A stretch of DNA of 31,149 nucleotides, taken from UHGV virus genome UHGV-0093339, one strand, 5' to 3'. The translations under genes were made by a program, and so were the position numbers. The notes under the pieces are model-generated. The model ran no database searches. It was given only the letters and a program-made list of their open reading frames with translations, and was not told the DNA's origin. Position 1 is the stretch's first letter; each line of letters begins with the position of its first letter. This document shows, one piece after another, positions 1 through 24,572 of the stretch. This DNA is from a virus.

Positions 1-29
1 GCGCTCCGGATGAATATGATGATCTCATA

Positions 30-209
30 TCAGGAACTTGTTCGCACCTTCCCTATCACCTGTGTACGATTAATCGTTATCTCCCCATCTTCGGTCTTTA
101 TCGTTTTGTTATGATTAACGACCGTACGATCAGAGATCTTAGTCTTGTTCTGGTTGATAACGTAAATAATCACCGCAACCACACCAACAACTATCCAGAA
201 AACTTCCAT
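30..209 (-). CDS. hypothetical small membrane protein (59 aa)
   Basis: Read by hand on the minus strand: ATG at 209-207 with GAGG about 8 nt upstream, stop TGA at 32-30; N-terminus MEVFWIVVGVVAVIIYVI is a probable TM helix; below the ORF-track length cutoff; dyad at 230-244 lies just upstream. Confidence 0.4.
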   Translation of the reverse strand: MEVFWIVVGVVAVIIYVINQNKTKISDRTVVNHNKTIKTEDGEITINRTQVIGKVRTSS

Positions 210-7077: not shown

Positions 7078-9587
7078 TGCGGAATATCTCCGGAGAATCT
7101 CTGACGCTTCTGTGTCAGATTAAGAACAACGGGAGAACCATCATCTTTCAGCAGATAACCAGTACCAAGTTTCACCAGGTACTGACTATCGCCGTAACTT
7201 TGCAAACCATACTGACCAGGCGGTGTTTTTATCCCAGAGCCGACAACTTGTTCATTCCAAGCCTGATTAACCTGCTTATCGAATTGCTCTGCAGACATTC
7301 CCCACGGCAAAAGGACATTCCCCATTCCGTTATAGTCATGCACGCCACCTGTAGCTACGTTAACAGCCTGTTTCCAGACATCATTGTCAATTTCGCCTGA
7401 TACCACGCCTTTTTTCGCCATCACACCAGCGTAATAATCCTTTGCGATCTCGTATGCCATTGATGCCCCCTGAGCGTCACCAGCAAATGCATCCTTCACC
7501 ATGTCAGAAAACTCAAGGCGAAGATCAGCATCTTTAGGCATCGGAATACCTTTCGCATCATCAGTACCTTTACGAGCCGCCGCGCCAGCAAGAATTGTCT
7601 GCGCAGCGGTTTCAGGAGACACGGAAACATCCGGATTAAACCAGTTTTTTTCTGCCAAAATACCACCGGGCTTATCCATCAGTATCCCGGCAACGGCAGC
7701 AGATGGAGCGTTGGCACTGATCTGCTGTAGTGCTGACATATACACCTGCCCACCACCAGTGCTCTGCCTGATGGTATCGAGATATGCTGCCTGTTGGGAA
7801 ACTGGAGCATCACGAAAGAAAACACCGATCTGATTGGCCTCGTCTTTGGAAAAGAACGTCAGTGGAGTGCCATATGACTTAGCAAGGTCACTGACCTGAG
7901 CGGCACGCAAGGCAACGCTCTGTCCAAAGTTATCCTTATTGCTCATGTCGATAGGCTTTGCCTGTCCGGAGGCAAGAGAGAACTGCACAGGATCCGACTG
8001 CCGCTGCTTTATCACCTGATTTGCAGCCGAAACAACGTTGTCATAAAGAGCTGCGCGTGCCGCATACCCCTCCCCTGTATCACCAGTATCCGGGCGTAAT
8101 TGCTCAACATATGCTGTAATGCTGCTTGTCGGCATGTTGCGGAAAGAGCCTATATACTGTCCGGCGATTTGCGTATTTCTGAACTCGGTATATCGCAGGC
8201 TTCCTTCTCTTACTCCATAAGCTGCAATAAAATCAGCCTCACCAGGTGGGTTAGGAAATTCAACGCCACGCATATACGCAGCTGTCGCATCGCGAACCTG
8301 GCTGTCAATCATCGTTTTATATTCAGCCTGCTGCTGCCGACGCAGTTGATCCGCCTGTCGCATAAAACTTGCCTGCGCCTCAGGAGATGCCGCATCGAAT
8401 GCTGCATTACCGGTATAGCGTTTGGTGTTGGTTGGAATTGTTGATAAACCAAGTGCTGCACTGACACCAGCAGTTAACTGCTGATCACTGTATGGCTGGC
8501 TACCGTTCTCATGATGGATAATGGCTGCACAAAGCGCCTTCAGGGTATCAGGATTAGATGCATCGAGAGGCTCATCAGCAGAAACGCCAAGTTGTTCGCA
8601 CACTGCTTTGATATACGACATAGTGTCATTTTTATCAGTAGGCGGTGCCCAGCGATTAATTATCTCGCTGACGGTATCAATACCCTGCCTCTGATACGAC
8701 ATCAGGTTTCGCCCTAATGCACGAATCCCGTGTTCAGGTGTTTCGAATTTAGCAAATCGACCATCATCACCGGTCTGGCCTACCCACGGATTAGTTTTGC
8801 TGTATTCGAGATTTCCTGGGTTATTGTTGCGTATGCCACGGGCACGCTCGGAAGAGTCACTATCTGCTACAGCACGGCGAGCTCCAGCAGCAGTATCACT
8901 TAACTCGCCATTACTTTGGATGAATGCGGTCGCATTGTTTGCCGACCACTGGGACAATGCGGCATCAGCAACCTTCTCTTTAAACTCGACTTTCTTGGCC
9001 TGGATTTGCTCGTCGCTCCAGCCATGCGCAATGCCGTAATCCTCAATTTGCTGGAAAGTTTGCTTATTAGCCAATACGTATGCGGCGTTGTCGCCATACA
9101 ATGCTGCGGCATTTTTACCATTGTTCAGCAGCGTAGCCTGAAACTGGCCTTCTTCGTAGGCGTTTATTTGCCCTATCTCGTGCCGCCCTGCCTGCGTAGT
9201 GAACTGAATGCGCTGCTGCTGCGCCTGCTGCATGAAAGCATTACGAGCCTGTTCATCCGGCAGCGACATAGCCAGTTGTTCGACCTGAGCATCAAACTGC
9301 TGCGTATACTCATGGCCTTTTCCAATAGCATTTTTCCCTTTCAGGTTAAGCAACCCTGTTTCAGGGTTATTCAGCAGATCGCTGCTTATCTGACTGAGGT
9401 TAAGAGATGCCTCCTGAGCCAGAGCGATATTGGCACGCTGTTTTGCCTGACCAAAAACATCAATAGTCTCTGCCCCTGCCCGAACAAAAGCATCACCAAT
9501 ACCTGGCTGAGAAAACGTCTGCAAGCCTGCTGACTGAACTCCACGGCTCTCAACCTGACGTCCGGATACTGTTGGTACGACTGGCAT
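7074..9587 (-). CDS. virion internal protein (837 aa), putative
   Basis: ORF-track 7074..9662 trimmed to the ATG at 9587, which overlaps the upstream stop (TAATG) and follows GGAGGA; contains the segment GIRNNNPGNLEYSKTNPWVGQ that I could not assign to a family. Confidence 0.5.
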   Translation of the reverse strand: MPVVPTVSGRQVESRGVQSAGLQTFSQPGIGDAFVRAGAETIDVFGQAKQRANIALAQEASLNLSQISSDLLNNPETGLLNLKGKNAIGKGHEYTQQFDAQVEQLAMSLPDEQARNAFMQQAQQQRIQFTTQAGRHEIGQINAYEEGQFQATLLNNGKNAAALYGDNAAYVLANKQTFQQIEDYGIAHGWSDEQIQAKKVEFKEKVADAALSQWSANNATAFIQSNGELSDTAAGARRAVADSDSSERARGIRNNNPGNLEYSKTNPWVGQTGDDGRFAKFETPEHGIRALGRNLMSYQRQGIDTVSEIINRWAPPTDKNDTMSYIKAVCEQLGVSADEPLDASNPDTLKALCAAIIHHENGSQPYSDQQLTAGVSAALGLSTIPTNTKRYTGNAAFDAASPEAQASFMRQADQLRRQQQAEYKTMIDSQVRDATAAYMRGVEFPNPPGEADFIAAYGVREGSLRYTEFRNTQIAGQYIGSFRNMPTSSITAYVEQLRPDTGDTGEGYAARAALYDNVVSAANQVIKQRQSDPVQFSLASGQAKPIDMSNKDNFGQSVALRAAQVSDLAKSYGTPLTFFSKDEANQIGVFFRDAPVSQQAAYLDTIRQSTGGGQVYMSALQQISANAPSAAVAGILMDKPGGILAEKNWFNPDVSVSPETAAQTILAGAAARKGTDDAKGIPMPKDADLRLEFSDMVKDAFAGDAQGASMAYEIAKDYYAGVMAKKGVVSGEIDNDVWKQAVNVATGGVHDYNGMGNVLLPWGMSAEQFDKQVNQAWNEQVVGSGIKTPPGQYGLQSYGDSQYLVKLGTGYLLKDDGSPVVLNLTQKRQRFSGDIPQ

Positions 9588-10132
9588 TATAATCCTCCGG
9601 GTAATCTGGTTCCTGCTGCTGCCCCGATTGGCGCAGGAGTGCTTTGAGTAAACGGACTCCACGTCCCACCAAACATCTGGTACGCACCGTATGCCTTCAG
9701 AGGCGCAGTGAGCAATGTTGTTGCTGCTCCCACATTCCCCTGTTTACGGGCTGAACTGGCTTCTGCTTTATAGTTGGCAGCCTGAACCTGATAACCGTAA
9801 GCCTCGCGTTGCGCGTTATTCACCGTCGTCAGCGAATCAAGAGCGCCAAACTGGGCAGTGTCGCCAAATATATCCAGCGCGTTACCTGTAGATAAATCAG
9901 CGCCGGTAGCCCCCATTGTCGCCGCTTGTGTACCAAGCCGCTGTCGGGTCTCTCTGCGCCGTTGCTCAGCTTCAGCGTTACCTCTGTTTATTGCATCATT
10001 TGCCTGAGCAGTGGCTATATCTGCGTTCGCTTCTGCAACCTTCGAGGCATACTTTCCCTGTTGGTACTGGGTGTATGCCTGAATGCCACTCATGGCGAGC
10101 ATTGCGCCACCAGCAATAACCGGATCGCACAT
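9587..10132 (-). CDS. virion internal protein (181 aa), putative
   Basis: ORF-track; TAATG start/stop overlap with both neighbours; size and position comparable to T7 gp14. Confidence 0.45.
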   Translation of the reverse strand: MCDPVIAGGAMLAMSGIQAYTQYQQGKYASKVAEANADIATAQANDAINRGNAEAEQRRRETRQRLGTQAATMGATGADLSTGNALDIFGDTAQFGALDSLTTVNNAQREAYGYQVQAANYKAEASSARKQGNVGAATTLLTAPLKAYGAYQMFGGTWSPFTQSTPAPIGAAAGTRLPGGL

Positions 10133-10596
10133 TATTTTCTCTCCATGTGAAATCTGTGGAAATTAAGACCAAGAGCACCATAAGGCGCGGCTTCTTCAAG
10201 CCTGAATCCAAGCCAGTGCAGCCATGCTTTGGCAACATGGTTTCGCTCGTCGACATAGTTTTCCAGGCGCGGATAAACTGCCAGCATCTGCTGCAATACA
10301 GGGCGGCAGTGGCGAAGAAATGTCTTCTGATATTTTTCGATACGGCTGGTTCCGACCAGCCAGGGCGTACCATTGCCACCGATCATTGACGCCGGAGATA
10401 CGCCAAACATGGTTACCAGTTCTCCGTTCGCGAACCCTGACCAGGCCATAGTCGCAGTGCGAAGACCAACACGCAGCGCATCTTCGGTAGTCATCAGCGA
10501 TACCGCATACAGTTCGTCAATATCAGCCTGACGAACATCCGGCAAAATCATCTGAAGATGCTCTTCGGTGGCGGGAATAATTCGAACATCGATCAT
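10132..10596 (-). CDS. virion internal protein (154 aa), putative
   Basis: ORF-track; start overlaps the nozzle gene stop; size and position comparable to T7 gp13. Confidence 0.45.
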   Translation of the reverse strand: MIDVRIIPATEEHLQMILPDVRQADIDELYAVSLMTTEDALRVGLRTATMAWSGFANGELVTMFGVSPASMIGGNGTPWLVGTSRIEKYQKTFLRHCRPVLQQMLAVYPRLENYVDERNHVAKAWLHWLGFRLEEAAPYGALGLNFHRFHMERK

Positions 10597-13067
10597 CAGA
10601 ATCCCCCAACAGTAAGGCGAGGAATAACGGCAAGAACAGACAGCGGCAACGGGTCAAGCTGACGGATTCTTACACGTCCGTTTTTGCCCCAGTTACTGTC
10701 CAGTTTCACTTCTACTTTTCCGGTAGCGTCATCAACAGGATCATCGTAGAACTCGAATTCACGCTGTGGATATTCGTACCATTTACCGCCGGGCGTAGTC
10801 GCCCAGATGCCGCGGCTGGCATTCACAACCAGAGTAACGGATGGGATCACCTGTTTTTTGTCCAGCAGCGTTTCCTGTCCGTTAATGTTGATATCCAGTG
10901 TTTCGAATTCAGCAGTTATTGGCAGGCCGATGTGCACTACAGCCCCCGGTGATTCCAGCGTAACGGCACCTCCGAAAACTACTTTCTGTGGTTCCACGTT
11001 CGCATCAGAGAGGATGTTTACGGTCTGTCCTTCAAGATGAGACAGGCCTCCAAATGTCCGGCGCGCCATCTGCCAGTTCGTGGTGGCCACATTCCTGAGG
11101 AATGGTGGGACGTTCCTGTTAGCACGAACCACTACAGCGGTATTGCTGGTTACAGAAATAATGTCGCAACGTAATTCTTTTGACACTTCATCTCCAGTAT
11201 CAGGAACAGTTCCGGTATAAGGGAACTGTAGTTGCGCGCCGACATCACTACTGGTGAAGTACGCACCACCAGAAACACTGATTGTATATTCCGCACGGTA
11301 ATCCCATTCACCAGAACCACCAGTGATGGTCATCGTTCTGTCAGACGTATTTCTTCCATCATAGCTAAGGCCAGAATCAACAAAGAAAGCATCTTCATCG
11401 CTGGTAAATAAACGGCTGGACAGTCTCTCGATGTATCTCACTGTTTGCCCGTTAACGGTTCTGTTAACGACGAAATACACCGCATCTTCATTGCCTTCGC
11501 TGATACTGCATGTGCTTTCATATTTTCCGGTACTGGATTGTGGTGCCCATGCAAAAACCTGCTGATCACGCAAATAGGTCATCACCAGTAATTTACCGTC
11601 ATCACGAATGCAGAAGGCGCTGGAGTAAGGGACAATAGAGAAGCACCAGTCAACAATGCTGTGCTTCTGAAAAAGATGATTGGCAAGGATGGTCAGGTCG
11701 TTCCCCTGATAGCCGTCAACATCGAATGAGTAGGCCAGATCACGGACAACACTGCCTTTCTCCTGGACGAACAGAGCAATATTCGCCACGGCAATTGGTG
11801 GGACATTGCTCGAGCCATTTGATCCCTGAGAGCTGAATGCAAATGATGATGGGGTTAACACTTTGTTCTGGTCGCCGGTGATGACGTACTCACCTCCGGA
11901 AGTCAGTGCCACCAGCGAACCGACATCAATCAGGTGGCGGATCTCATTAACCTGACGCCCGGCATAGGTGTAGATAATTCTGTCGTCATCCTGCGTAGGA
12001 TTGCTTTTGCCAAAATCCTTATAATCCCCGGTACGGCTGGCCCAGATAGTCTGAGGGAACGCAGTCGATGCGGCGAAGTAAAGACGTTGTTGATAATAAA
12101 CAACAGTGCCAGGATAACCATTAACACTGTTCCAGGCATATTTAGCCCATTTATAGCTGGCATTATCCTCGCCAACTACCTGCGAAGGGATATAGGAAAT
12201 CACCTCGGCAGTTGCAGTAGTTCCATTTGCAGCAGTGATACGGGCAATGCCAAAACCACTGTGCAGATATTCCCACTCAATGCCAGTATCATCATCACCG
12301 GATCCGCCCCAGCCATCCCATGATGTGCCTTCTGTATGCGAAGGGCGCAAAGTACCTGTTTTGCCTGCTGTAACGGCGCGATAGTAGTTACTGTCTGCAC
12401 GGCGAATATCGCCAATCGACGTACTCTTACTGGTTTCCCATACCGGCACAGAATCCACTGCAGGCTGTTCCAGATAGAACAATTTGCCTACCAGCTCCGC
12501 GCCAAAAATAGAGGCGCTTGCCGTTAGCGTAATTGTCCCGGTGCTGGCGCTGGCATAAACCGTCACTGACTCGTCAATATTGATATCTTCAAATGGCCCG
12601 TTCTTCGTTACCACATCAACCAGTTGCCAGTTGTCATGCGCATAGCGGCGCAACTCTTTCGGCGGGTATGCCGGATGAACCAGCGTAAGCACGTCTGCGC
12701 TTTGCGTGAATTTAATTCGGAACAGATCGGCTTCAGTATATGGCGTGGCAATTTCATAAATAACATTGCTGCTGTTCAGCACCAACGCACTATCTTTGAT
12801 AACGCGCATGTACTGGTGTCCGAACTCCAGAGCATAAGTCTGAACCGTCGAGAACTGGAACGGGATCAGGCGGCATTTCCGATTTGGGTATTTGGCGGCA
12901 CCGACAAAACGCGTACCAGGTCGATTCTCAACGCCGCCATACTGCCGCACGATAAAGTTATCGCACTTGCGCAATGCCACCTGGTACTTCGCCATGTCGA
13001 TACGTCCGTACAACGACGGTCCAATCTCACCACCGGCAAAGCTGGGCTGGATCCAACTGATAGCCAT
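10596..13067 (-). CDS. tail nozzle protein (T7 gp12-like tail tubular protein B)
   Basis: 823-aa ORF; N-terminus MAISWIQPSFAGGEIGPS...VENRPGTRFV resembles the T7 gp12 N-terminus MALISQSIKNLKGGISQQP...LQKRPPLVF as I recall it; directly follows the adaptor-like gene. Confidence 0.6.
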   Translation of the reverse strand: MAISWIQPSFAGGEIGPSLYGRIDMAKYQVALRKCDNFIVRQYGGVENRPGTRFVGAAKYPNRKCRLIPFQFSTVQTYALEFGHQYMRVIKDSALVLNSSNVIYEIATPYTEADLFRIKFTQSADVLTLVHPAYPPKELRRYAHDNWQLVDVVTKNGPFEDINIDESVTVYASASTGTITLTASASIFGAELVGKLFYLEQPAVDSVPVWETSKSTSIGDIRRADSNYYRAVTAGKTGTLRPSHTEGTSWDGWGGSGDDDTGIEWEYLHSGFGIARITAANGTTATAEVISYIPSQVVGEDNASYKWAKYAWNSVNGYPGTVVYYQQRLYFAASTAFPQTIWASRTGDYKDFGKSNPTQDDDRIIYTYAGRQVNEIRHLIDVGSLVALTSGGEYVITGDQNKVLTPSSFAFSSQGSNGSSNVPPIAVANIALFVQEKGSVVRDLAYSFDVDGYQGNDLTILANHLFQKHSIVDWCFSIVPYSSAFCIRDDGKLLVMTYLRDQQVFAWAPQSSTGKYESTCSISEGNEDAVYFVVNRTVNGQTVRYIERLSSRLFTSDEDAFFVDSGLSYDGRNTSDRTMTITGGSGEWDYRAEYTISVSGGAYFTSSDVGAQLQFPYTGTVPDTGDEVSKELRCDIISVTSNTAVVVRANRNVPPFLRNVATTNWQMARRTFGGLSHLEGQTVNILSDANVEPQKVVFGGAVTLESPGAVVHIGLPITAEFETLDININGQETLLDKKQVIPSVTLVVNASRGIWATTPGGKWYEYPQREFEFYDDPVDDATGKVEVKLDSNWGKNGRVRIRQLDPLPLSVLAVIPRLTVGGF

Positions 13068-13672
13068 CAGGACAACCTCGCAATGGTAAACTCGTCAACC
13101 GGTGGCTGTGGTTCCTGTGATTCATTCTGGCTATGCGAGCCAGCACTAAGAATCACGCGATTGTACATATTGAGGGCAAACGTACCGAGGTCTGCATTCC
13201 CAGTCAGCGCCATGTTAATAGCTGCCGCAAGACGCCAGGCCAACGCCTCCATAAAAATGGCATCAAACATGTTCACATCTGTAACGCGAGAGACATACTT
13301 GAGCCATGCCTGAGGCTGGTCTGTGTAGATCAACTTTCCTGTTCCGTTGGTGTCTGCACCAACTTCGTACTGAACGCGCATTGCTGCTGTTGGATTGCGT
13401 ACACCAGGAAGCATAATTTCAGTAATGCGCAGACAATCTGACGGGTACTGGTACGCATATTCCCAGTCAGGCGGTGGATTGCTCGTATCTGCAAGCGCCA
13501 CGCGTTTGGTAGCAAAGTTCCAGTCAAAATCAGAAAGCACAGCATCACGGCAGGCCTCAAAGTGCAGCGAACATTCCCCCGCTTCCTTGCTGGCTTCCGT
13601 CAGGCTGTTAATGCTGCGGCTATTGCCAATATTGGACAGCGCACGATTACAGATCTCTACTACAGAGGCCAT
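13067..13672 (-). CDS. head-to-tail adaptor protein (T7 gp11 / P22 gp4-like)
   Basis: ORF-track 13067..13675, ATG at 13672 overlapping the upstream stop (TGATG) and preceded by GGAGGTGA; N-terminal pattern EICNRALSNIG...DW resembles adaptor proteins from memory. Confidence 0.55.
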   Translation of the reverse strand: MASVVEICNRALSNIGNSRSINSLTEASKEAGECSLHFEACRDAVLSDFDWNFATKRVALADTSNPPPDWEYAYQYPSDCLRITEIMLPGVRNPTAAMRVQYEVGADTNGTGKLIYTDQPQAWLKYVSRVTDVNMFDAIFMEALAWRLAAAINMALTGNADLGTFALNMYNRVILSAGSHSQNESQEPQPPVDEFTIARLS

Positions 13673-13995
13673 CACTCACCTCCGTTACCGTACAGAGTTT
13701 CAGCCGCTGATTTTTCTACATCCCCGGAAACAGGAGCGATCGCCATATCAGTGATCTGCAGATCGGCGCTGCGATTAACACCATCGTCAGTTTCTCTGGC
13801 AGACAGGCCTCGAATAACAGCCTTTGCAGTTATCATCACTTCTGTTCCGACGCCCTGAGGTTGCACCTTCAGCCTATTCAATGTGTCGTTATTAAGAGTG
13901 ATGCACAGTCCCCACGGGTATTCATCGCGAGTTCTGGTTTCTCCGCTCTCATCCTGGTAGCTGTCAGTGCCGGTTTTGAGGTTTACGAGTTCCAT
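13672..13995 (-). CDS. hypothetical virion-module protein (107 aa)
   Basis: ORF-track 13672..14001 trimmed to the ATG at 13995 with CAGGAG 5 nt upstream. Confidence 0.5.
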   Translation of the reverse strand: MELVNLKTGTDSYQDESGETRTRDEYPWGLCITLNNDTLNRLKVQPQGVGTEVMITAKAVIRGLSARETDDGVNRSADLQITDMAIAPVSGDVEKSAAETLYGNGGE

Positions 13996-14006
13996 ATACA
14001 CTCCTG

Positions 14007-14029
14007 CAATAAAGGGGCCGAAGCCCCTT
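14007..14029 (-). terminator. putative intrinsic terminator inside the virion operon
   Basis: aggggc-cgaa-gcccct hairpin followed on the minus strand by TTTATT, between the 111-aa and 107-aa genes. Confidence 0.45.
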
Positions 14030-14045
14030 GTCTGATCCGCGAGGC

Positions 14046-14381
14046 TTACACGCCCAGTTCTTTACGCTTATCTGCGATCTTCTCGCGGAGCGTTTCGGCT
14101 TTGGCGTTATGGTGTGGCTTCTCGTTAAAGAGCAATTCGTACTCTTCACGGAGCTTATCCAGTTCACCATCATCTGACACATCGTTGATGATTTTGGTGC
14201 TGGTTGCTGCCATAGACACCTTTCCTGCTACCTTTGCTTTTGCCTGTCTGGCTGCATCGTTAACAGGTTCCAGTGCGCTACCAGGCTCACCTTCGTATTC
14301 GATTTCTGCCCCCTCCGGCCACAGTGTGTTATGGATATGAGAGAGGCGCAGAACGCGGTATCTTGGTTTCTCACCTGACAT
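14046..14381 (-). CDS. hypothetical head-module protein (111 aa)
   Basis: ORF-track 14046..14390 trimmed to the ATG at 14381 with AAGGTGA upstream; coiled-coil-like C-terminus. Confidence 0.5.
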   Translation of the reverse strand: MSGEKPRYRVLRLSHIHNTLWPEGAEIEYEGEPGSALEPVNDAARQAKAKVAGKVSMAATSTKIINDVSDDGELDKLREEYELLFNEKPHHNAKAETLREKIADKRKELGV

Positions 14382-14391
14382 CGATATCACC

Positions 14392-14829
14392 TTAACCAGT
14401 TACTTTTGAGCGGATCGGATACGGCGTATTGGCATCAACATCAAGACTGATACCAGCAGTGAATTCGCCAGCCGTTAGTGGGCCAGTTGCGACGGAGTAG
14501 TTAACACGCAGATATCGCTGAACACCGGCAGGCACCTTTGCAGAAACAACTCGTTTACCTGCTGTCAGGGCGGTCTTTGCCAGTGCGCCACTATCATAAA
14601 TAGTGGTCCATGAGCTGTTATTCTCACTCGTCTGCAACTGGATGTTTACAGTTGCATCACCGCTTGCCGCGGCGGCTGTGTTAACCAGCGCCCAAAACTC
14701 AAGCGGGTAACCCACGCCGATATCACGACGTTTTCCGTCAATTGGACCGAGATCGATTACGTCAGTAGAAGCCGCGGTATTCGTAACCGCCTGAGCTTCG
14801 GAGAACATCAACAGTTTGTCGGTGATCAT
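14392..14829 (-). CDS. head decoration-like protein (145 aa), putative
   Basis: ORF-track; GGAG RBS; C-terminal segment TAGEFTAGISLDV resembles the lambda gpD C-terminus (AFAGTAISIV) from memory; low-confidence family call. Confidence 0.4.
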   Translation of the reverse strand: MITDKLLMFSEAQAVTNTAASTDVIDLGPIDGKRRDIGVGYPLEFWALVNTAAAASGDATVNIQLQTSENNSSWTTIYDSGALAKTALTAGKRVVSAKVPAGVQRYLRVNYSVATGPLTAGEFTAGISLDVDANTPYPIRSKVTG

Positions 14830-14880
14830 CTTCTTTCTCCATTAGTGGGTCTGTTACGACCCACAGGTTAATAACAGGCG

Positions 14881-16450
14881 TTACACCACGCGGGCTTCTG
14901 TTTCCAGAAGCGCATCAGTTTCACGGATTGGTACACCACGGAATGAAGTCCACCACTCGCCTTCTGTCTCTTTTACGCTGATCGCCAGAGATGTTTTCTC
15001 CAGAGATTGCAGATCAAGAGCCTGGCCTACAGTGCGGTTCATGTAGAACACCGGGCGACCCATGCCACGGTTTGGAATTCGATGCAGTGCTTTAACCATC
15101 AACTTCGCAATATTTGCGGCAGAGGAAGGTTCTGAAAGATTGCTGACATCGATGTTTGCAATGCGAACAACATAACGCCAGTCACGCAGAGCAAGTCCGT
15201 TATCCCATTTGTAATGGGTGCGATAGCCTTCGTACTTGCCGCCATTAGCATCTTCCAGTGTCACCTGGCCTTTATCTTCCATCTGGATGCCAGCCTTCTG
15301 CCCTTTCGGGAAGATGCCATGCACGGTGTTTTCGCCCCACACCACTAACCAGATTGAGGTGTTATCTGTACCCGTGCCACCAGCATCAATGATGTTCTGA
15401 GCATTACCCGCAGACAGGCTGGAATAGCGGGAGGACAGTCCCATAAACTGCTGAGGGTTAACGCTGGAATCACCATAAAACAGCGTCTGCGCCATCTGCT
15501 GATTCATCGCTTCAATAAATGCGCGGTCTTCAGACAGGCGGAATTCGGCGGTATTGCCGTTCAGATCAGCCAGTGACTTATCGACTTCAGCATAGGTTTC
15601 CAGCATGCCCACGGAATCGGTTACCCGGGCATGATGATCCATAAACATCTTCGCCGTTAACTTCCCAGCGCGGAGCCATAATTGGAAACTCATCGAATCC
15701 GGACTCACGCAACAACTTGTCGTTATCGCCACCAACCTCGTAATAAACCGATTTGAATGGCTTGTTCTTGCTATCCAGCTTCGATGTATCGCGGTCAATG
15801 TTCGGGTAAACCGAATGCATCACTTCAATCCACTTCTCGTAGGTGCCGCTTTCCCACATGCTTTTTACGGATTCGCTGACGTTATTTAGCCCGAACTCCT
15901 GAACAAGCTGACGAACAGTCATAGCGAACTTGCGAAAACAGGTGTCCACACTGCCACGAGGTGAGTTAGCCAGGTAGTAACTGCCTATCGGGAATGGCAT
16001 TGTGCGAATGATGTCCTCGTCATCTTCCAGCACTGCCATTGCACCAGTGCTGTATGTGCCGAGGCTTCCGTATAACTGCGGCAGCGACTGATAGAGATTC
16101 GACTTATTGAACATATCGTTCATGCGGTTCTGCACCGCCTCAAGCCACAACTTAACAGGGCCATAATCCATCATTTCAGGATCTGGCGTAGCCAGGCGAA
16201 ACCACGGACGCGCGGGGCTTGTGATGCCTGACACCATGCCGCTGGCGAGAGTGCGCGCCGCCATAGTCCCGGTCGAATCAATAATGCGTGTATTGCGTCG
16301 ATCGTTACGGTTGACCTCAGAAGTCAGAAAGCGGGAACCACGCGGGTTGATGTAATCACTCAACTCGCGCCAGTGCGGCTCGAACGACTGACGCTCGCTT
16401 TCAAGTTGTGCGAACTGTTTGTTCAATCGCTCTTTAGTTGTTTCCGCCAT
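14881..16450 (-). pseudogene. portal-like head gene split between two reading frames near 15620-15650
   Basis: ORF-track 15587..16450 and 14881..15798 overlap by about 70 codons in different frames; protein-like sequence ends in one frame at ...PRWEVNGEDVYG and resumes in the other at ...ARVTDSVGMLETYAEV; N-terminus and the GE(D/S)YG region resemble the T7 portal from memory; the listed start of the second ORF is a TTG. Confidence 0.45.
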
Positions 16451-16464
16451 TTCAATGACTCCGG

Positions 16465-16671
16465 TTACTGACCAAGCAGCGTTTTACCGCTGGTATTAGC
16501 GGTTGATGTGTCGCCCTGAGAACCGGTAAGCAGCGTAGAACTACGACCAGCAGCAGCGCGACGGCGACGAGTTTCTTCGTCGCGGGCATCAACAACGGCG
16601 GCATCCTGCTCCTGTGGTGCTGCCTGAACTTCTGGTGTTGCAGGCACTGACGGTGAGCTACCCATGCACAT
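16465..16671 (-). CDS. hypothetical low-complexity small protein (68 aa)
   Basis: ORF-track; ATG preceded by the same cggagtcattga element that precedes the portal-like start at 16450. Confidence 0.35.
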   Translation of the reverse strand: MCMGSSPSVPATPEVQAAPQEQDAAVVDARDEETRRRRAAAGRSSTLLTGSQGDTSTANTSGKTLLGQ

Positions 16672-16761
16672 ATCAATGACTCCGTACGCAATTAAATTAT
16701 TACCAATTTAACCACATATGATTTATTTATCGTAGATAGTTGACATTTAACGCACAAATTA

Positions 16762-16776
16762 TTACCTTTCAGGTAA
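16762..16776. promoter_or_regulatory. operator-like dyad TTACCTTTCAGGTAA upstream of the head operon
   Basis: Perfect TTACC-N5-GGTAA; a TTGACA hexamer on the plus strand lies at 16740-16745. Confidence 0.4.
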
Positions 16777-17098
16777 CCAAAGAGTTCATTCCGGTTACTA
16801 ACCTGACTGGCTTGTCGTTAAATTGAACAGGTGGAGTGAGCTTTTATTTTGAGCAGTACGGCGTATGGCACATGCGCCGATAGCGGTCTGGATACGTTTA
16901 AGGGGCACCCTCCCTTGCTCGGGCAAACGAACCAGGTAGCCGGAATGTGCAAGTCGAGCGGTTTTATTCCGCGCACGGGGATTCACCATCCCGGCGATTC
17001 GGTGTGACGCCTCGGAAGAGACGAGGGTACAACGATGAGAGCATTTATGGAGCCGCGACAAAGTGTGGTGCCTTAACAGGCTAAGTGCTCTCAGCGTT

Positions 17099-17175
17099 GT
17101 GGCATTAGCTCAGTTGGACAGAGCAACCGCCTTCTAAGCGGTTGGTCGCAGGTTCGAATCCTGCATGCCACGCCA
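17099..17175 (+). tRNA. tRNA-Arg (anticodon TCT)
   Basis: Cloverleaf folded by hand: 7-bp acceptor stem gtggcat/atgccac, D-arm gctc-agttggaca-gagc, anticodon stem accgc/gcggt with loop cttctaa (anticodon TCT at 17133-17135), T-arm gcagg-ttcgaat-cctgc, discriminator G and encoded CCA. Confidence 0.85.
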
Positions 17176-17218
17176 GAATCACGCCTAAGGACCGTGATGC
17201 CAGAAGTTCCAGGGGCTT

Positions 17219-17260
17219 GGCGGTGATGGTTTCCCTTGAAGGACTATCACCGCCCTTTTT
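17219..17260 (+). terminator. putative intrinsic terminator downstream of the tRNA
   Basis: ggcggtgat...atcaccgcc stem followed by TTTTT. Confidence 0.5.
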
Positions 17261-17338
17261 ACAGCAGGACGCCATTGCGATGACTTCATGCTGTAAACCA
17301 GTACAGCCACGGAAGGCATAACTCATTGCTTCCAGTTC

Positions 17339-17362
17339 GCCCGGTTCGCCGGGCATTTTTTT
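17339..17362 (+). terminator. intrinsic terminator
   Basis: gcccgg-ttcg-ccgggc hairpin followed by seven T. Confidence 0.6.
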
Positions 17363-17378
17363 AAGGTGAGATTAGACT

Positions 17379-17750
17379 ATGAGTGACAAAGACATTGAAT
17401 CTGAAATTCAGGCTAAAGGTTTAGCCGCGCCGCGCGTTACGCCAGACCATATCGAGAGCATTATTGCTCAGGAGGCATATTTCACAGCAGAAGATGGTGC
17501 CTTTGGCGTAGCCATAAAAGCGAAACATACTGGCGGAGAGGTAAACTACCAGCCGCACGAATCACTTTCTCTGCTGACGTTCTGCGTCCTGGTGCTGCGC
17601 AACGGCTTCACCGTCACCGGAGAGAGCGCCTGTGCAAGCCCGGAAAACTTTGATGCAGAAATTGGTCGGAAGATTGCCCGACAGAATGCTGTAAACAAAA
17701 TCTGGATGCTTGAAGGTTACTTGCTGAAGCAGAAGTTAAGCGAGCAATAA
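17379..17750 (+). CDS. hypothetical protein (123 aa), moron gene
   Basis: ORF-track; AAGGTGAG RBS; plus-strand gene embedded between the terminase gene and the head genes, both on the minus strand. Confidence 0.6.
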   Translation: MSDKDIESEIQAKGLAAPRVTPDHIESIIAQEAYFTAEDGAFGVAIKAKHTGGEVNYQPHESLSLLTFCVLVLRNGFTVTGESACASPENFDAEIGRKIARQNAVNKIWMLEGYLLKQKLSEQ

Positions 17751-17840
17751 CACCGTGACATATCACAAACAGCCAGCCTATGAGCTGGCTTTGTTTTATC
17801 CTCATCAGAGGATATCAACAACATTATCCCCTCAAGCGGA

Positions 17841-19316
17841 TTAAGCATAGGGATCGTAATCTGTGATGGCCTTGCCTTGCTGGTTCTGCTGCCCGGGAAT
17901 TCGCAGACGCTTAGACACAGGGAACGCAAACGTCAGCAGTAGCGCATCGCCTTTACCCGGCGAACGCCCAAGCCGCTCCTTGATATCTTCCTTCGGTTCG
18001 ATAACGATTTTACCGTCCACGCGAACTTTGTACTCTGCCGCCGACAGATCGTCCGCTGTTTCCTGGTCATCCAGCATCCCTCCCAACCTCAGCCATGTCT
18101 TGCATGAGTTGAACATCTCCCCACGCTTGTTAAGCATCTGCGGGTCAGTGGACGCACCGCCGAACGGAACAAGTTGCCATGTACGACCCCAGCCATCACC
18201 GATTGACTTCAGACCGGTTCCGTAACCGAAGTCAATGAACACCGCGTCAGCATTGTACTGGTCTTCAAAGTCAGCGATACGCTTCGCCATAATCAGATCG
18301 TCAGTGGTCTTGTTGCCAGTCCATAGCATCTTACTATGCAACCCCTGCCGCAGGTATATCACCGCGTCATCAACGCCGGAGTATGCCGGGTCAACGCCGA
18401 TTATCACCGGAGCATGTGCAACCTGCGCAGCGGTTACCACCCGTTTCATTGCCTCATCAGTAAGACCGGTAGGGATAAACTGCAATTCAGATGCATCAGG
18501 GAATATGCCGCGCACACGGATTTTAACGAAGTCGCTGTCTTCCCCGTAGTCATCAACCCATTTCTGCAACTGCTGTTTGTTAGTGCCTTCCACCGTCCGG
18601 CTGTCAATCTGCGCAGTTTTCCAGCGGTGTTTATATTTGCGGAAACATTCGCGGAAACGCCCGGTATTACGCGTCGGGTTCCCGAACGCCACCCAGATGA
18701 TTTCGGTGTCTTCGTCCGTCAGCGCACCCTCTGCTACCTCCCACACCAGATCGGCAATGTTGGATGCTTCGTCGAAAACCACGATGATGCGTTTGCGCTC
18801 GTTGTGTAGTCCGGCGAATGCCTCAGTGTTGTGCTCAGACCAGGGGATTGCGTCAGCTCGCCACCGCTTGTCGTGCCCAGGATCATTGCTGTACATCGCG
18901 GTAGCGGTACAGGTAAACCAGTCTTTCGTGATGGCAAGGTTCGACCACTTGATAATTTCCGGCCAGGTCTTCGTTCGTAGCTGGTTGTCGGTGTTGGCGG
19001 TCACCACGACCTTACAATCCTCGCAAGTGGACATGCCCCAGTTGATCAGCATTGAGATGAATGCGGATTTACCAATACCGTGACCAGAAGCGCGTGCCAG
19101 CATAAGCGGCTGATAGCGCGTCTCTGGATTCTGCAGGTGATCACGTATCTCTCGGAACGCATCGGCCTGCCACTGACGTGGACCGGTAGCATGTGCCAGT
19201 TCAGTCCCCTCTTCCCCCCAAGGGAACGCATAGAGGGCATAGCCAAGCGGATCGTGAGTGAACCCTGCAATATCTTCGATTAACTGCTCTTCAGGAGATA
19301 ACGCTGCATCTGTCAC
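17841..19316 (-). CDS. terL: terminase large subunit
   Basis: 491-aa ORF with an N-terminal ATPase-like region (GHGIGKS P-loop-like, VVFDEAS Walker B-like) and a C-terminal nuclease-like half; overlaps the small-subunit gene stop. Confidence 0.8.
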   Translation of the reverse strand: MTDAALSPEEQLIEDIAGFTHDPLGYALYAFPWGEEGTELAHATGPRQWQADAFREIRDHLQNPETRYQPLMLARASGHGIGKSAFISMLINWGMSTCEDCKVVVTANTDNQLRTKTWPEIIKWSNLAITKDWFTCTATAMYSNDPGHDKRWRADAIPWSEHNTEAFAGLHNERKRIIVVFDEASNIADLVWEVAEGALTDEDTEIIWVAFGNPTRNTGRFRECFRKYKHRWKTAQIDSRTVEGTNKQQLQKWVDDYGEDSDFVKIRVRGIFPDASELQFIPTGLTDEAMKRVVTAAQVAHAPVIIGVDPAYSGVDDAVIYLRQGLHSKMLWTGNKTTDDLIMAKRIADFEDQYNADAVFIDFGYGTGLKSIGDGWGRTWQLVPFGGASTDPQMLNKRGEMFNSCKTWLRLGGMLDDQETADDLSAAEYKVRVDGKIVIEPKEDIKERLGRSPGKGDALLLTFAFPVSKRLRIPGQQNQQGKAITDYDPYA

Positions 19317-19945
19317 TGATTACCATCCTGACGTTCTTTGAGTCGCTTCCTGGCTGCTGCTATGCGATCAGCAATTGTCACATTCACATTAACATCCAGG
19401 CGTTCTTTGAATGCGTTGACGTCGACGTGCTTACCGATGAGCTCGAGGTTTTTCACCTTGTCGGGCCATTTCACCTTCTTCAGGATATGCTCGACATCCT
19501 CAACAGAGAGATCCGCCTCGCCATTCTCTTTTTGCAGGGAAGCCTGGGTTGTCTTGATGGTAGCGATATCCATAGCACTGAGAGAGGTACGCCAGACCTT
19601 CGGCCATTCAGCGATCGGCTTCATCCCGCCGTCATCGTTCAGTATATCCAGCACGTCCATCTGGTCTATTTCCACCAGGCGCATGAGAACGTAATCAGCA
19701 CTGACGCGCATTCGTTTGTTGCGCTCCTCCATCAACTCGGCAATCCGTTTTTGAATGCGTTCATCGCGCATCATGACACTGGCTTTAACTGCCGCTGTAT
19801 TTGGGGAGAATCCTGCATTAATCGCTGCCTGAGTCTGGTTTTCAGGCGTTTTGATGTATGACTGGCAATAAGCCTCCTGCATTGCTGTTAGTGGCTTAAA
19901 TTGCGTTGATTTGCGTTTATAGGTTTTAGGTTCAGCAGGCATCAT
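19313..19945 (-). CDS. terS: terminase small subunit
   Basis: ORF-track 19313..20023 (listed start is a TTG) trimmed to the ATG at 19945; sits immediately upstream of terL; resembles small-terminase proteins from memory. Confidence 0.65.
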   Translation of the reverse strand: MMPAEPKTYKRKSTQFKPLTAMQEAYCQSYIKTPENQTQAAINAGFSPNTAAVKASVMMRDERIQKRIAELMEERNKRMRVSADYVLMRLVEIDQMDVLDILNDDGGMKPIAEWPKVWRTSLSAMDIATIKTTQASLQKENGEADLSVEDVEHILKKVKWPDKVKNLELIGKHVDVNAFKERLDVNVNVTIADRIAAARKRLKERQDGNQ

Positions 19946-19952
19946 AACCACC

Positions 19953-19984
19953 GTGGTAATAGTTACCGTTGTGGTAATAGTACC
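19953..19984. repeat. tandem 14-bp repeats GTGGTAATAGT(T)ACC upstream of terS
   Basis: Two near-identical copies at 19953-19967 and 19971-19984; each has internal dyad symmetry (GGTAA-TAG-TTACC and TGGTA-ATAG-TACCA). Confidence 0.5.
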
Positions 19985-19986
19985 AT

Positions 19987-20014
19987 GCAAAATAAAGCCG
20001 CCATAGTTGGCGGC
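19987..20014 (-). terminator. intrinsic terminator upstream of the packaging genes
   Basis: gccgcc-aactat-ggcggc hairpin followed on the minus strand by TTTATTTT. Confidence 0.55.
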
Positions 20015-20063
20015 AGTATTCAAAACCCATCAAATTCATCATGCATAATCTACTCGTGACATG

Positions 20064-20402
20064 TCACACTATTAATTTCGTTTCATGCCAGCCTTTAGTC
20101 ACCCAGCATTGCGAGTCACCATTACACGGGCATGAATTCACAGGAACTCTCTCGCCGCACTTACCGCAACGTTTTCTGCTGATCGATTTTATACGCCCGT
20201 GCGCGCGAGCATCATCCTGGCGGATAAGTAACGCAATATACTCACCAAATTCGTAAGGCACACGCCCGGGGCGACGCGTGGCGCAGTTCCGCTCCAGCAT
20301 TTCAATTTCCTGAGCATCAAGCACAATCTCCAGCTTACGTACACCGGATGCAGCTTGTCTGGCTCTCTGAGCGGCTTTGCGCTCTGCTGCTGATTTAGCC
20401 AT
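20064..20402 (-). CDS. hypothetical Cys-rich protein (112 aa), possible late-gene regulator
   Basis: ORF-track; basic N-terminal helix plus C-terminal cluster CGKCGERVPVNSCPCNGDSQC; sits directly upstream of the terminator and the terS repeats. Confidence 0.5.
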   Translation of the reverse strand: MAKSAAERKAAQRARQAASGVRKLEIVLDAQEIEMLERNCATRRPGRVPYEFGEYIALLIRQDDARAHGRIKSISRKRCGKCGERVPVNSCPCNGDSQCWVTKGWHETKLIV

Positions 20403-20760
20403 TCTGATTTTCCTGCATCATGAGAAATACAATCATGGCGGCTCGGAGGGGATTTTCATGTATAGCTCGCTTAGATTTACAGTAGGCCACACCGCGTGCA
20501 CCCCACTCGTCTTCATCGAGATTGATAATGCTAATCCTGTATTTTTCAATAATCGGCCATGCGTCTGCTGGGTTTGCGCATGGGTTAAAGGATCCGCGCT
20601 CAACTTCTACTTCAACTGCGTCTCCGTTTACAATGTCTCCCTCAAATGAGACAAACACCATATCGCCATTCTCACCTTCTTTGTAATCCGGTGATCCGTT
20701 ATGAATGGCTTCGAATACCGCCACGTTAATTTCAAAATCACTTAACTGTGAATAGTCCAT
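20395..20760 (-). CDS. hypothetical protein (121 aa), possibly DUF2591/NinX-like
   Basis: ORF-track 20395..20763 trimmed to the second ATG, which overlaps the upstream stop; N-terminus MDYSQLSDFEIN recalled from lambdoid nin-region proteins; family name uncertain. Confidence 0.5.
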   Translation of the reverse strand: MDYSQLSDFEINVAVFEAIHNGSPDYKEGENGDMVFVSFEGDIVNGDAVEVEVERGSFNPCANPADAWPIIEKYRISIINLDEDEWGARGVAYCKSKRAIHENPLRAAMIVFLMMQENQNG

Positions 20761-21944
20761 CACTTAACCTCCTGCTGCGGTGCTGCTGGCATTTCACGCC
20801 AGTGCGTAACTGAGTGCGGATCCGGATATTCGGTGCCATCATCCCAGCGATTGCCATTCCACATTGCAGACCACATCTCACCGTCTTCATACATGACCAT
20901 TACCGGAATTAACTTATCCGGCATTCGCTCACTACAGCTTATCCAACCATCCGGAATTACCGGAGAGTTGCCATTTACCAAGTCAGCTCGAACATATAGC
21001 GTGTCATCATGGTGCTGATTGTGGCTGCACCATGTTAATTCGCTTAACTCGCCATCTTCTGGCCATACTCCAGCTGTTTGCAGCCAGATATGGGCTGGCG
21101 CATCCTGGCAAGGTGTATTAACTGGAAACTTGTAAGTTTGGCTTACAGGTTGGCTACCCTGAAGCATGGCAGCGTGGCAGGCATACTCAACGCCCTTAAC
21201 TGCATCTGCGCAGTAGTTATAGCGATTGCATTCCACTAATTTCCGTTTGAGTTTTTCAATTGCCTGCGCGACATCAGCCTGTATTACAGGAACTGGCGGA
21301 ACGGCTGTTTGCTCTCGAACGTCATTAGTCGCTATCGGTTCTGCTGCCAACTGACTGGCATATTTGTTAATGGTAACGATAAGCTCTTGCTCAGCCTCAT
21401 CCAGACAATCACCGATACCTCGCCTGTCACCGTCAAAATCATCGAAATCGGCACGAATCTTGGCAACCTTCAGGATTGCGGACAACACCTCACTAGGAAT
21501 TACCGGATAGTTGGTTGACGTTTCCGCGATTTCCCGAAAATTATTGGTTGACGAATTCTTGTTTTCCCGAAAGTTTCCGGACTGAAGCATGGCGGCGCGA
21601 TAGGCGTTCCAGCCGACAGCTTTTCCGTGTTCAAACGCGCTGTCAAAGTCATCATCAATTTCCATCGCAGCGGGCACAGATACCGGCGCCGGATGGGCGG
21701 TGTACAAGCGAGTTCCATCCTTGAAGTTTTCCCAATCAGCCTGTCCATCAGCGGCTATGCACACCACCTTCGCATCCGGGTGGCATCCGCAATCGTCATA
21801 CTCACCGAGGACAACCTCGCCAACAGCCTCCGCTTCGAGCAATGCCAGCGCGATACGCGCCAGCTCTGCAATTTCTTCGCCGAGAATAGCCCCGACATTT
21901 TCACGTCTGGATAATTCCGTCAGTCTCTCTTTGGTGAATGTCAT
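20760..21944 (-). CDS. DUF551 domain protein with Ea22-like N-terminal region
   Basis: ORF-track; GGAGG RBS; C-terminal segment ...WISCSERMPDKLIPVMV...THWREMPAAP resembles DUF551 from memory. Confidence 0.55.
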   Translation of the reverse strand: MTFTKERLTELSRRENVGAILGEEIAELARIALALLEAEAVGEVVLGEYDDCGCHPDAKVVCIAADGQADWENFKDGTRLYTAHPAPVSVPAAMEIDDDFDSAFEHGKAVGWNAYRAAMLQSGNFRENKNSSTNNFREIAETSTNYPVIPSEVLSAILKVAKIRADFDDFDGDRRGIGDCLDEAEQELIVTINKYASQLAAEPIATNDVREQTAVPPVPVIQADVAQAIEKLKRKLVECNRYNYCADAVKGVEYACHAAMLQGSQPVSQTYKFPVNTPCQDAPAHIWLQTAGVWPEDGELSELTWCSHNQHHDDTLYVRADLVNGNSPVIPDGWISCSERMPDKLIPVMVMYEDGEMWSAMWNGNRWDDGTEYPDPHSVTHWREMPAAPQQEVK

Positions 21945-21947
21945 GGG

Positions 21948-22478: not shown

Positions 22479-22479
22479 A

Positions 22480-23142
22480 TCACATCACCCTGAAGCCGTT
22501 GCATTTACGTAAAAAATCGCAGATATAGCCCTTCATTTTTTCTTGCCAATCTCGATCATTCCCATTGCACCAACCATCAGGTGGAGTCCAGTTTTCTATC
22601 AGAGCAGCCATTTTCTTTGCTTTCGTCGGAGTAGCTGTTGCGGTATCACATACGACCCAGTACATAACCGGATGTCGCCACGGGAATCTTTCGGGACCAC
22701 CAGGATATAAACTTTTTTCCTTGCTGTACCGGTGAAACTCCGCCATCACATCGTCAATGGTGACGCCAAGAACCATCTTGCTGTCTTTACACCACTTGAT
22801 GAATTGCCCTGGCGACGGCCAGAACGGAGACTCACTGGCGCGGGCGTGGCGCATACCAGCAGAAACCTGTTCACGGGTTCGGATCCCCCCTTCGGCAAAC
22901 GCAGCAATCCACTGCTGTTTTGCAGCAACTTCCTGCTCTGGCGTCTTCAGGTTGGTTACCACTGCCGCCGGAAACAGTTGTTTCAGCTGTTTGAAAAGGG
23001 CATCAACAAGCCTCTCTGCTGACATGTTCACCACGTTGTCATTGTTGGTGTACTGATGCTCATAACCTGACATGCGAGAAAGGGCTTCTCCGTCACGGTT
23101 TTGTATCGCGGTAAAAACGTTGTTCACAAGAAATCCTCCCAT
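22480..23142 (-). CDS. replication protein P homolog (helicase loader)
   Basis: Segment QLFPAAV...QQWIAAFAEGGIRTREQVSAGMRHARASESPFWPSPGQFIKWCKD parallels lambda P (...QWVLAFRENGITTMEQVNAGMRVARRQNRPFLPSPGQFVAWCRE) from memory; start overlaps the O-like gene. Confidence 0.75.
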   Translation of the reverse strand: MGGFLVNNVFTAIQNRDGEALSRMSGYEHQYTNNDNVVNMSAERLVDALFKQLKQLFPAAVVTNLKTPEQEVAAKQQWIAAFAEGGIRTREQVSAGMRHARASESPFWPSPGQFIKWCKDSKMVLGVTIDDVMAEFHRYSKEKSLYPGGPERFPWRHPVMYWVVCDTATATPTKAKKMAALIENWTPPDGWCNGNDRDWQEKMKGYICDFLRKCNGFRVM

Positions 23143-23939: not shown

Positions 23940-23954
23940 GATTAATCTCCGCTA

Positions 23955-24155
23955 TCAGCTTGAATGTTGTGGGGAGGAATTAATCATGATCTGCTTAATC
24001 TCTGCCCTGATGCGACGGTTTGATTCCATGGTGCACTCAACACAGTGTCCGTTGTAAACCCAGCGTTCACTGTCATGTCCGTGCTTACATGGTTTTCCGG
24101 TGTAGTAGCGTTTAAGTCCGCGCTTTGCGGCATCAATACGTGTAATGATTTCCAT
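23955..24155 (-). CDS. hypothetical Cys/His-rich small protein (66 aa)
   Basis: ORF-track 23955..24218 (listed start is a TTG) trimmed to the ATG at 24155; motif KPCKHGH...GHCVEC; occupies the cII position between the Cro-like and O-like genes. Confidence 0.45.
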   Translation of the reverse strand: MEIITRIDAAKRGLKRYYTGKPCKHGHDSERWVYNGHCVECTMESNRRIRAEIKQIMINSSPQHSS

Positions 24156-24536: not shown

Positions 24537-24572
24537 AGCTATTGCCTGATATTTATTTCAGATAATAAATAT

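Follow-up and report, generated by a model that had tools for sequence, protein, structure and literature searches.

The window analysed here, a stretch of 31,149 nucleotides of viral DNA (UHGV virus genome UHGV-0093339), presents a puzzle: a tail module in T7-like order for which the capsid genes seem to be missing. The original prediction found neither a scaffold nor a major capsid gene between terL and the adaptor. It offered three alternatives without choosing among them: capsid genes lying outside the window, a head-module deletion leaving the prophage defective, or an unrecognised small capsid set. We therefore asked what has become of the head module.

Judged by its sequence, the element is a temperate podophage prophage of the phiV10/epsilon15 type (Uetakevirus), residing in Escherichia coli and adjoining guaA. 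The 3' end of guaA occupies positions 31097-31149, as it does in E. coli ML35, and the 418-aa integrase is of the tyrosine type (PF00589 plus arm-binding domains). Matches to the Uetakevirus capsid set (PF20911, PF21628 and PF12236) were far above the cut-offs, those of the capsid and portal proteins being partial. The ML35 prophage (NZ_CP025747.1, about 3,576,800-3,617,200) shares both the guaA integration site and the gene order, and showed four mismatches in total to window positions 53-31149 (blastn). None of these lay in the block from 53 to 15625, which was 100% identical; the other two aligned blocks contained two each.

Uetakevirus phiV10 (NC_007804) is about 98% identical to the window at the nucleotide level and collinear with it in the terminase, head, tail, internal-virion, immunity and integrase regions. 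Its alignment to positions 2792-15625 ran for 12.8 kb at 98.2% identity with zero gaps (blastn), and the ORF lengths there equal the phiV10 gene lengths. The terminase, immunity and integrase blocks were 96-98% identical, whereas the early-gene and moron cassettes (about 1300-2790, 20400-22640 and 28990-29665) differ in part. In the intact relatives, the order is terS, terL, a short interval (Gp49-family gene, tRNA-Arg, small ORF), portal (559 aa), a Bbp19-like gene (98 aa), peptidase (231 aa), major capsid protein (328 aa), Bbp16 cement, gp9, gp10 staple, adaptor and nozzle.

The portal-capsid junction

Synteny comparison with these intact relatives pinpointed the missing DNA. Using blastn against phiV10 and ML35, we located a deletion junction at 15622..15625, where 2102 bp are absent and one copy of TACC is kept. 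The intact parent ML35 carries this 4-bp motif at both ends of the corresponding segment (nucleotides 26367-28468 of the ML35 locus, L010, bounded by ML35 positions 3,598,366 and 3,600,468). The flanks of the junction were 100% identical to ML35 across 15.6 kb to the left and a minimum of 5.9 kb to the right, and in the 8.8 kb compared around it, identity was again 100% apart from the missing 2102 bp. The head-module deletion listed by the original prediction was thus borne out against both relatives. A full-length module is the usual state: at least 80% of it lay in one piece in 522 of the 546 complete E. coli genomes carrying it, and the junction was found in none of 5426 complete genomes.

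The segment lost takes in portal codons 277-559, all of the Bbp19-like and peptidase genes, and capsid codons 1-81, corresponding to phiV10p07 (3' half), p08, p09 and p10 (first 81 codons). All of this is present in the ML35 prophage, which has an intact portal, Bbp19-like, peptidase and capsid segment. In the lineage of the window, a single 2102-bp deletion between the two TACC copies has fused the front half of the portal gene to the last three quarters of the capsid gene. Such a short repeat suggests illegitimate recombination through microhomology, or slippage during replication.

The portal remnant (15626..16450, minus strand; PF12236 and tblastn) comprises codons 1-276 of 559. Its ORF (15587-16450, minus strand) matched positions 2-270 of 489 in PF12236 (E = 2.9e-103), and residues 1-276 of the phiV10 portal were found at 16450-15623 with 98.9% identity (tblastn), residues 277-559 being absent. 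Because 2102 is not a multiple of three, the portal frame ends 11 codons past the junction; these out-of-frame codons, derived from capsid-gene DNA, encode NRFRGHAGNLC after codon 276 and give a truncated product of 287 aa. The full-length phiV10 portal covers PF12236 from 2 to 488, so that the window ORF falls well short of the full coverage of a functional T7-type portal.

The major capsid gene remnant (14881..15625, minus strand; PF20911 and tblastn) comprises codons 82-328 of 328. Within the ORF at 14881-15798 (minus strand), residues 56-305 matched positions 61-313 of 313 in PF20911, the epsilon15 GP7 family (E = 1.1e-115), and residues 81-328 of the phiV10 capsid protein were found in the window at 99.2% identity (tblastn). 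The upstream part of this ORF, to 15798, is portal DNA read in another frame, and the portal and capsid ORFs overlap by 212 nt. Intact phiV10 capsid protein covers PF20911 from 1 to 313 and matches the solved structures 3J4U (E = 1e-128), which we take to be the BPP-1 capsid protein, and 3J40, epsilon15 gp7 (E = 3e-85). The window ORF has neither the full PF20911 coverage nor the start of its own that a functional GP7-type (HK97-like) capsid gene possesses, and its native ribosome-binding site is also gone. Some truncated capsid product could be made from the ATG at 15646-15648, from which Prodigal-type gene callers predicted a 255-aa capsid fragment in independent contigs. Automated annotation of this locus will yield a "portal protein" of 287 aa and a "major capsid protein" of 255-305 aa, gene remnants that both need to be labelled as pseudogenes.

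The peptidase is the only scaffold or protease candidate of the head module. tblastn searches with the phiV10 Bbp19-like and peptidase proteins gave no match anywhere in the window; the latter query, phiV10p09, belongs to PHROG 458 (head maturation peptidase/scaffold), and its gene lies wholly inside the deleted segment. A role for the peptidase as protease and/or scaffold is taken only from its PHROG and RefSeq names, and neither phmmer against solved structures nor a Pfam search gave a match for it. The predicted lack of a capsid or scaffold gene between terL and the adaptor therefore holds for an intact capsid gene and for any scaffold/protease gene, but a capsid gene is recognisable there by its PF20911 match, though truncated.

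Intact head-region genes and other lesions

Upstream of the portal remnant, the large terminase subunit gene terL is intact (17841..19316, minus strand; 491 aa; PHROG 2 'terminase large subunit', E = 3e-53), collinear with phiV10p02 and 100% identical to the ML35 copy. A two-way hairpin terminator at 17770..17790, with terminator-like matches on both strands, separates it from a Gp49/Sf6 gp66-family gene on the opposite strand (17379..17750, plus strand; 123 aa; PF13876, E = 2.4e-35; equivalent to phiV10p03). A terminator is annotated at the corresponding position in phiV10. ARAGORN detected a tRNA-Arg (anticodon TCT) at 17099..17175 (plus strand), where related phages and prophages are also annotated with one. 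Just upstream of the portal lies a conserved 68-aa ORF (16465..16671, minus strand), by phiV10 synteny a homologue of phiV10p06 and epsilon15 gp3, which was also called as a gene in independent contigs. The tRNA, the Gp49-family gene and the 68-aa ORF had been omitted from the earlier list of features between terL and the portal.

Downstream of the capsid remnant, the 145-, 111- and 107-aa ORFs are present just as originally described. The first (14392..14829, minus strand) is an intact Bbp16-family capsid cement, or decoration, protein (PF21190, E = 4.7e-47; also the RefSeq name in relatives). The second (14046..14381, minus strand) is a conserved homologue of epsilon15 gp9 and phiV10p12 (PHROG 590, E = 3.9e-61, and phiV10 synteny); PHROG 590 carries no assigned function. 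We considered this protein as a capsid protein and ruled it out, as it is conserved beside an intact capsid gene in viable relatives. The third (13672..13995, minus strand) is an intact capsid staple protein of the epsilon15 gp10 type (PF21628, E = 2.5e-51; RefSeq 'capsid staple protein'). The terminator predicted between the 111- and 107-aa genes corresponds to a GC-rich hairpin at 14012..14029 (minus strand; AAGGGGC-UUCG-GCCCCUU followed by UAUU). From its sequence and fold it is weakly terminator-like, but it was not flagged by a simple consensus terminator scan. The adaptor/tail protein, a 201-aa homologue of epsilon15 gp11, is intact (13067..13672, minus strand; PHROG 394 'tail protein', E = 4e-87, with a weaker match to PHROG 9239 'tail tubular protein' and phiV10 synteny). 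NCBIfam gave no matches for the small head proteins, peptidase, adaptor, nozzle or terL.

Two further lesions were found outside the head region. Comparison with ML35 by blastn, together with inspection of the junction, revealed a second deletion at 22642..22647, which removes 1452 bp of the replication module in frame; phiV10 homology also breaks there. In ML35 this module encodes a P-like protein of the full 261 aa, a DUF1064 protein and two hypothetical proteins, whereas the replication protein P homologue of the window element is truncated. Positions 1..52, which precede any ML35 match, form one end (52 nt) of an IS5-family insertion sequence that has landed in a prophage gene; the ML35 copy of that gene is unbroken. 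This 52-mer occurred in 4175 plasmid records, and in one inspected record it lay 17 nt past the CDS for the transposase of an IS5-like element (ISKpn26 family). The 1452-bp deletion and the IS5-family insertion mark the element as decaying. Measured against ML35, decay has so far brought two deletions at microhomologies, an IS insertion and four substitutions.

Consequences for the phage and alternative readings

Essential morphogenesis genes are disrupted in comparison with phiV10 and ML35, the 2102-bp deletion affecting four head genes, and the prophage is almost certainly defective. Lacking a functional portal, protease/scaffold and capsid protein, it would be expected to form no procapsids and to package no DNA. 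The prophage alone would thus yield no virions, despite its intact terminase genes. The tail and internal-virion genes also keep their full length and the phiV10 order. We assign a probability of about 0.93 to the reading that an otherwise ordinary phiV10/epsilon15-type prophage has lost part of its head module, makes no virions alone and is decaying. A co-resident related prophage could supply the portal, peptidase and capsid protein in trans.

The loss from portal to capsid may have been favoured rather than accidental, if selection acted on head-less derivatives as harmless carriers of serotype conversion or immunity, or if they persisted with the aid of intact relatives that package them. 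At least three independent deletions have occurred in the same few kilobases of phiV10-like prophages (the window lineage, ETEC1748 and EECO1006), each sparing the terminase genes and immunity functions. We nevertheless regard this reading as very improbable.

It is also very unlikely that the deleted element spreads as a passenger, packaged into the heads of a co-infecting or co-resident phiV10-like phage. Intact terS and terL, the complete tail and internal-virion genes and the retention of most regulatory genes would suit such a lifestyle, as would the supply of potential helpers: the head module occurs in about 10% of complete E. coli genomes, some with up to four matching places. The same deleted element was also found under several accessions. 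However, those copies are 99.8-100% identical to the window, which fits clonal inheritance, and the truncated P homologue and the IS landing fit decay. The element carries no satellite gene set of its own of the P4-like or PICI kind; positions 53-31149 hold nothing that is absent from the intact ML35 prophage, of which the element is a copy minus two segments.

It is very improbable that misassembly, in the form of a collapsed or chimeric contig, created the junction and hides an intact head module. The window seems to be a contig ending inside an IS element, which suggests short-read assembly. A 30-nt junction pattern had no exact match in viral_contigs, metagenome_contigs or genome_contigs, the last holding one genome per species. 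Against an artefact, an exact-protein look-up placed the 287-aa truncated portal product on six public contigs. All four of those that were read (accessions ERZ27307110, ERZ27256583, ERR3451242 and ERR912168) contained the identical 60-bp junction. They came from different assembly pipelines, namely ENA contigs with k141 and k119 in their names, and Logan. Taking k from the ENA contig names, a breakpoint repeat of only 4 bp should be far too short to collapse a de Bruijn assembly graph at k141 or k119. The junction is a real inherited allele, because the same junction stands on contigs of four other run or assembly accessions, although these may represent one strain sequenced repeatedly and not be fully independent.

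There is next to no likelihood that the phage is viable, with its capsid, scaffold and portal genes elsewhere on the element or replaced by a set of novel small capsid proteins. The element extends about 6 kb beyond the window, and the 145- and 107-aa capsid accessory proteins are intact. However, neither the deleted DNA nor its proteins have a homologue elsewhere in the window, and the ML35 counterpart of the outlying part contains only tailspike, holin, endolysin, DUF2514-protein and hypothetical genes. As seen in cryo-EM structures of BPP-1 and epsilon15, Bbp16- and gp10-type proteins are accessories bound to a GP7-type shell. Their presence beside a GP7-type capsid remnant speaks for a known capsid system and gives no support to an unrecognised one. 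Nor does the proposed portal-like gene of about 520 codons survive: the overlapping ORFs would together reach 520-590 codons, near portal size, but a single portal gene broken by a frameshift (programmed or due to a sequencing error), with the capsid gene absent for some other reason, is refuted by the Pfam and tblastn assignment of the downstream ORF to the capsid and by portal homology that stops exactly at the deletion junction.

Comparison with known systems

Compared with viable phiV10, which has a complete head module, the window element lacks one. With the epsilon15 and BPP-1 capsid systems it has in common the gp10-type staple and Bbp16-type cement; its capsid remnant falls in the epsilon15 GP7 family of Pfam, and the lost 98-aa gene is of the Bbp19-like kind. 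Both the capsid and the portal genes are complete in those phages, whereas here the N-terminal quarter of the capsid protein and the C-terminal half of the portal are gone. The puzzle of a T7-like tail module without a capsid gene thus comes down to a deletion inside a prophage of a well-known type and matters little beyond annotation, where completeness tools relying on hallmark-gene counts would mistakenly rate the element intact.

A decaying, head-defective prophage of this kind is ordinary, and defective prophages are reportedly a general phenomenon in E. coli. DLP12, Rac, Qin, e14 and CP4-57 are cryptic, defective E. coli prophages that likewise combine internal deletions and IS insertion with the retention of many genes. 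In contrast to these, the window element stands at a very early stage of decay, four substitutions from an intact relative and with most genes full length, and its comparison with ML35 shows with unusual clarity how prophage decay begins.

Gene order and identity of the overlapping reading frames

All structural genes were located on the minus strand, with transcription running from high to low coordinates. The small terminase gene (19313-20023, minus; PF03592) and the large terminase gene (17841-19316, minus; PHROG 2) were followed by two plus-strand features, a Gp49/Sf6 gp66-family gene (17379-17750; PF13876) and a tRNA-Arg(TCT) gene detected by ARAGORN (17099-17175). An 83-aa ORF (17105-17356, minus), annotated as phiV10p04 in Escherichia phage phiV10, overlaps the tRNA gene in antisense and is probably not a real gene. 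Next came a 68-aa ORF conserved by synteny (16465-16671, minus) and two overlapping ORFs of 287 aa (15587-16450, minus) and 305 aa (14881-15798, minus). The tail side comprised the adaptor gene (13067-13672, minus; PHROG 394), a gene for an 823-aa nozzle-type protein (10596-13067, minus; PHROG 376) and, downstream of it, genes for internal-virion proteins, one of which belongs to the T7 gp14 family.

The original prediction had joined the two overlapping ORFs into one portal-like gene, and this was ruled out by their profile matches. Of the 489 positions in the portal profile PF12236, the 287-aa ORF covered just 2-270 (E = 3e-103), while residues 56-305 of the 305-aa ORF corresponded to positions 61-313 of 313 in PF20911, the profile for the GP7 major capsid protein of epsilon15 (E = 1e-115). 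The full-length phiV10 proteins matched the same profiles at positions 2-488 and 1-313, respectively. The phiV10 capsid protein also matched the solved capsid structures 3J4U (E = 1e-128), presumably the capsid protein of Bordetella phage BPP-1, and 3J40, epsilon15 gp7 (E = 3e-85). The two ORFs are thus remnants of different genes, portal and capsid.

An unrecognized set of small capsid proteins had also been considered. This idea did not survive: besides the PF20911 capsid remnant, the region encodes a 145-aa Bbp16-family cement protein (14392-14829, minus; PF21190, E = 5e-47) and a 107-aa epsilon15 gp10-type staple protein (13672-13995, minus; PF21628, E = 2.5e-51). Between them lies a gene for a 111-aa protein of PHROG 590 with no assigned function (14046-14381, minus).

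A 2102-bp deletion from portal to capsid

Window positions 13000-19400 aligned with phiV10 over 100% of their length at 98.3% identity, but spanned 8503 bases in phiV10 versus 6401 in the window, and pairwise blastn placed the break at 15622-15625. The closest intact relative found was a prophage adjoining guaA in E. coli ML35, which was 100% identical to window 53-15625 and differed by two mismatches in each of the blocks 15622-22647 and 22642-31149. The segment absent from the window measured 2102 bp in ML35 (L010 26367-28468) and was bounded at both ends by TACC, of which the window retains a single copy. The deletion probably arose by microhomology-mediated illegitimate recombination or slippage.

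According to the phiV10 and ML35 annotations, the lost DNA encoded portal codons 277-559, a 98-aa Bbp19-like protein (PF25181), a 231-aa protein named protease/peptidase in PHROG 458 and 'peptidase' in RefSeq, and capsid codons 1-81. As 2102 is not divisible by three, the portal frame stops 11 codons past the junction. The first ~57 codons of the 305-aa ORF, which is longer than the true capsid remnant, are portal DNA in another frame. The tblastn matches in the window were confined to residues 1-276 of the portal and 81-328 of the capsid protein, with no match to the Bbp19-like or peptidase proteins; the earlier observation that capsid and scaffold genes were missing therefore held in part, a partial capsid gene being present. 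Capsid genes lying outside the window, another proposed explanation, were not supported, as the deleted DNA had no second copy elsewhere within the window and the part of the ML35 prophage beyond the window's left end (tailspike, two holins, endolysin, a DUF2514 protein and hypothetical genes) contained no head genes.

Occurrence of this and other head-module deletions

The exact 287-aa product, including its frameshifted tail, was found on six public contigs. Four of the six were read (ERZ27307110, ERZ27256583, ERR3451242 and ERR912168, whose mutual independence is uncertain); all four carried the identical 60-bp junction and were 99.8-100% identical to the window across 3.9-20.9 kb. Because the junction is common to four accessions and, by our reasoning, a 4-bp repeat cannot collapse an assembly, we take the deletion to be a real, inherited allele.

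Among 5426 complete E. coli genomes, 546 matched the phiV10 portal-to-capsid segment, 522 of them with 80% or more of its length as a single piece; none of the 5426 contained the window's junction. Two further genomes carried different deletions in this segment, which are independent events in related prophages. ETEC1748 lacked ~1.7 kb with a 13-bp microhomology (L002 3679-3681 and 5392-5404), so that the C-terminus of the peptidase is fused to the portal at about residue 218; in addition, a second deletion extended from Bbp16 into the nozzle gene. In EECO1006 (L003 5059), ~2.55 kb was missing from the capsid-gene start to approximately portal codon 46, removing nearly all of the portal gene together with the Bbp19-like and peptidase genes.

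Separately, the 517-position profile phrog_30010 matched the peptidase (phiV10p09, L001 3483-4178) at positions 23-192 and the nozzle protein (window 10596-13067) at positions 188-461. Since one profile matches both proteins, a chimeric ORF present in some other deletion derivative seems to underlie the family.

Remainder of the element and its status

Window 2792-15625 aligned with phiV10 without gaps, the tail and internal-virion ORFs had the same lengths as in phiV10, and the integrase was complete. At the right-hand edge of the window, positions 31097-31149 belong to the 3' end of host guaA. Because phiV10 homology extends to 31111, within this stretch, the attachment core and the final guaA codons appear to overlap.

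Two further lesions were present. Relative to ML35, an in-frame deletion of 1452 bp with a 6-bp microhomology (GGTATC) lies at 22642-22647 (ORF 22480-23142, minus), where phiV10 homology also breaks. The resulting fusion begins with residues 1-~161 of a lambda-P-like replication protein and continues into the final 55 residues of a hypothetical protein of 99 aa; P has thereby lost its 100 C-terminal residues, and a DUF1064 gene and one more ORF are gone. Window 1-52 derives from an IS5-family element, of which it comprises the terminal 52 nt (reverse complement GGAAGGTGCGAACAAG...). The ML35 gene at this site, encoding a 242-aa hypothetical protein, is uninterrupted, and these 52 nt therefore mark an IS insertion into the prophage, which is probably also why the contig ends here. 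In the ORF for a DnaT-like replication initiator (23124-23939, minus), we also noted a 24-nt copy-number difference at 23574-23597: the repeated PKNGMLND motif occurs twice in the window and ML35 and once in L005 and L007, two contigs carrying the window's head deletion.

The head-module deletion that had been proposed was borne out by the 2102 bp missing relative to both phiV10 and ML35. Lacking the peptidase, the N-terminal quarter of the capsid protein and a complete portal, the element would be unable to build procapsids or package DNA, and we infer that the prophage is defective and at an early stage of decay. It is possible that a co-resident relative complements the missing head functions.

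The element belongs to a phage genus that is already well described. It differs from phiV10 in a cassette at ~1300-2790, flanked by the Bro-N gene and the last internal-virion gene, which phiV10 lacks; phages HEMP4 and phiv142-3 are 98-99% identical to this cassette, and in phage TL-2011b a partly matching region carries an annotated YafO-family toxin. Prophage inactivation through internal deletion and IS insertion is a textbook phenomenon, reportedly described, for example, by Bobay, Touchon and Rocha (in PNAS, 2014). A head-deleted prophage such as this one is ordinary and of a kind already known.
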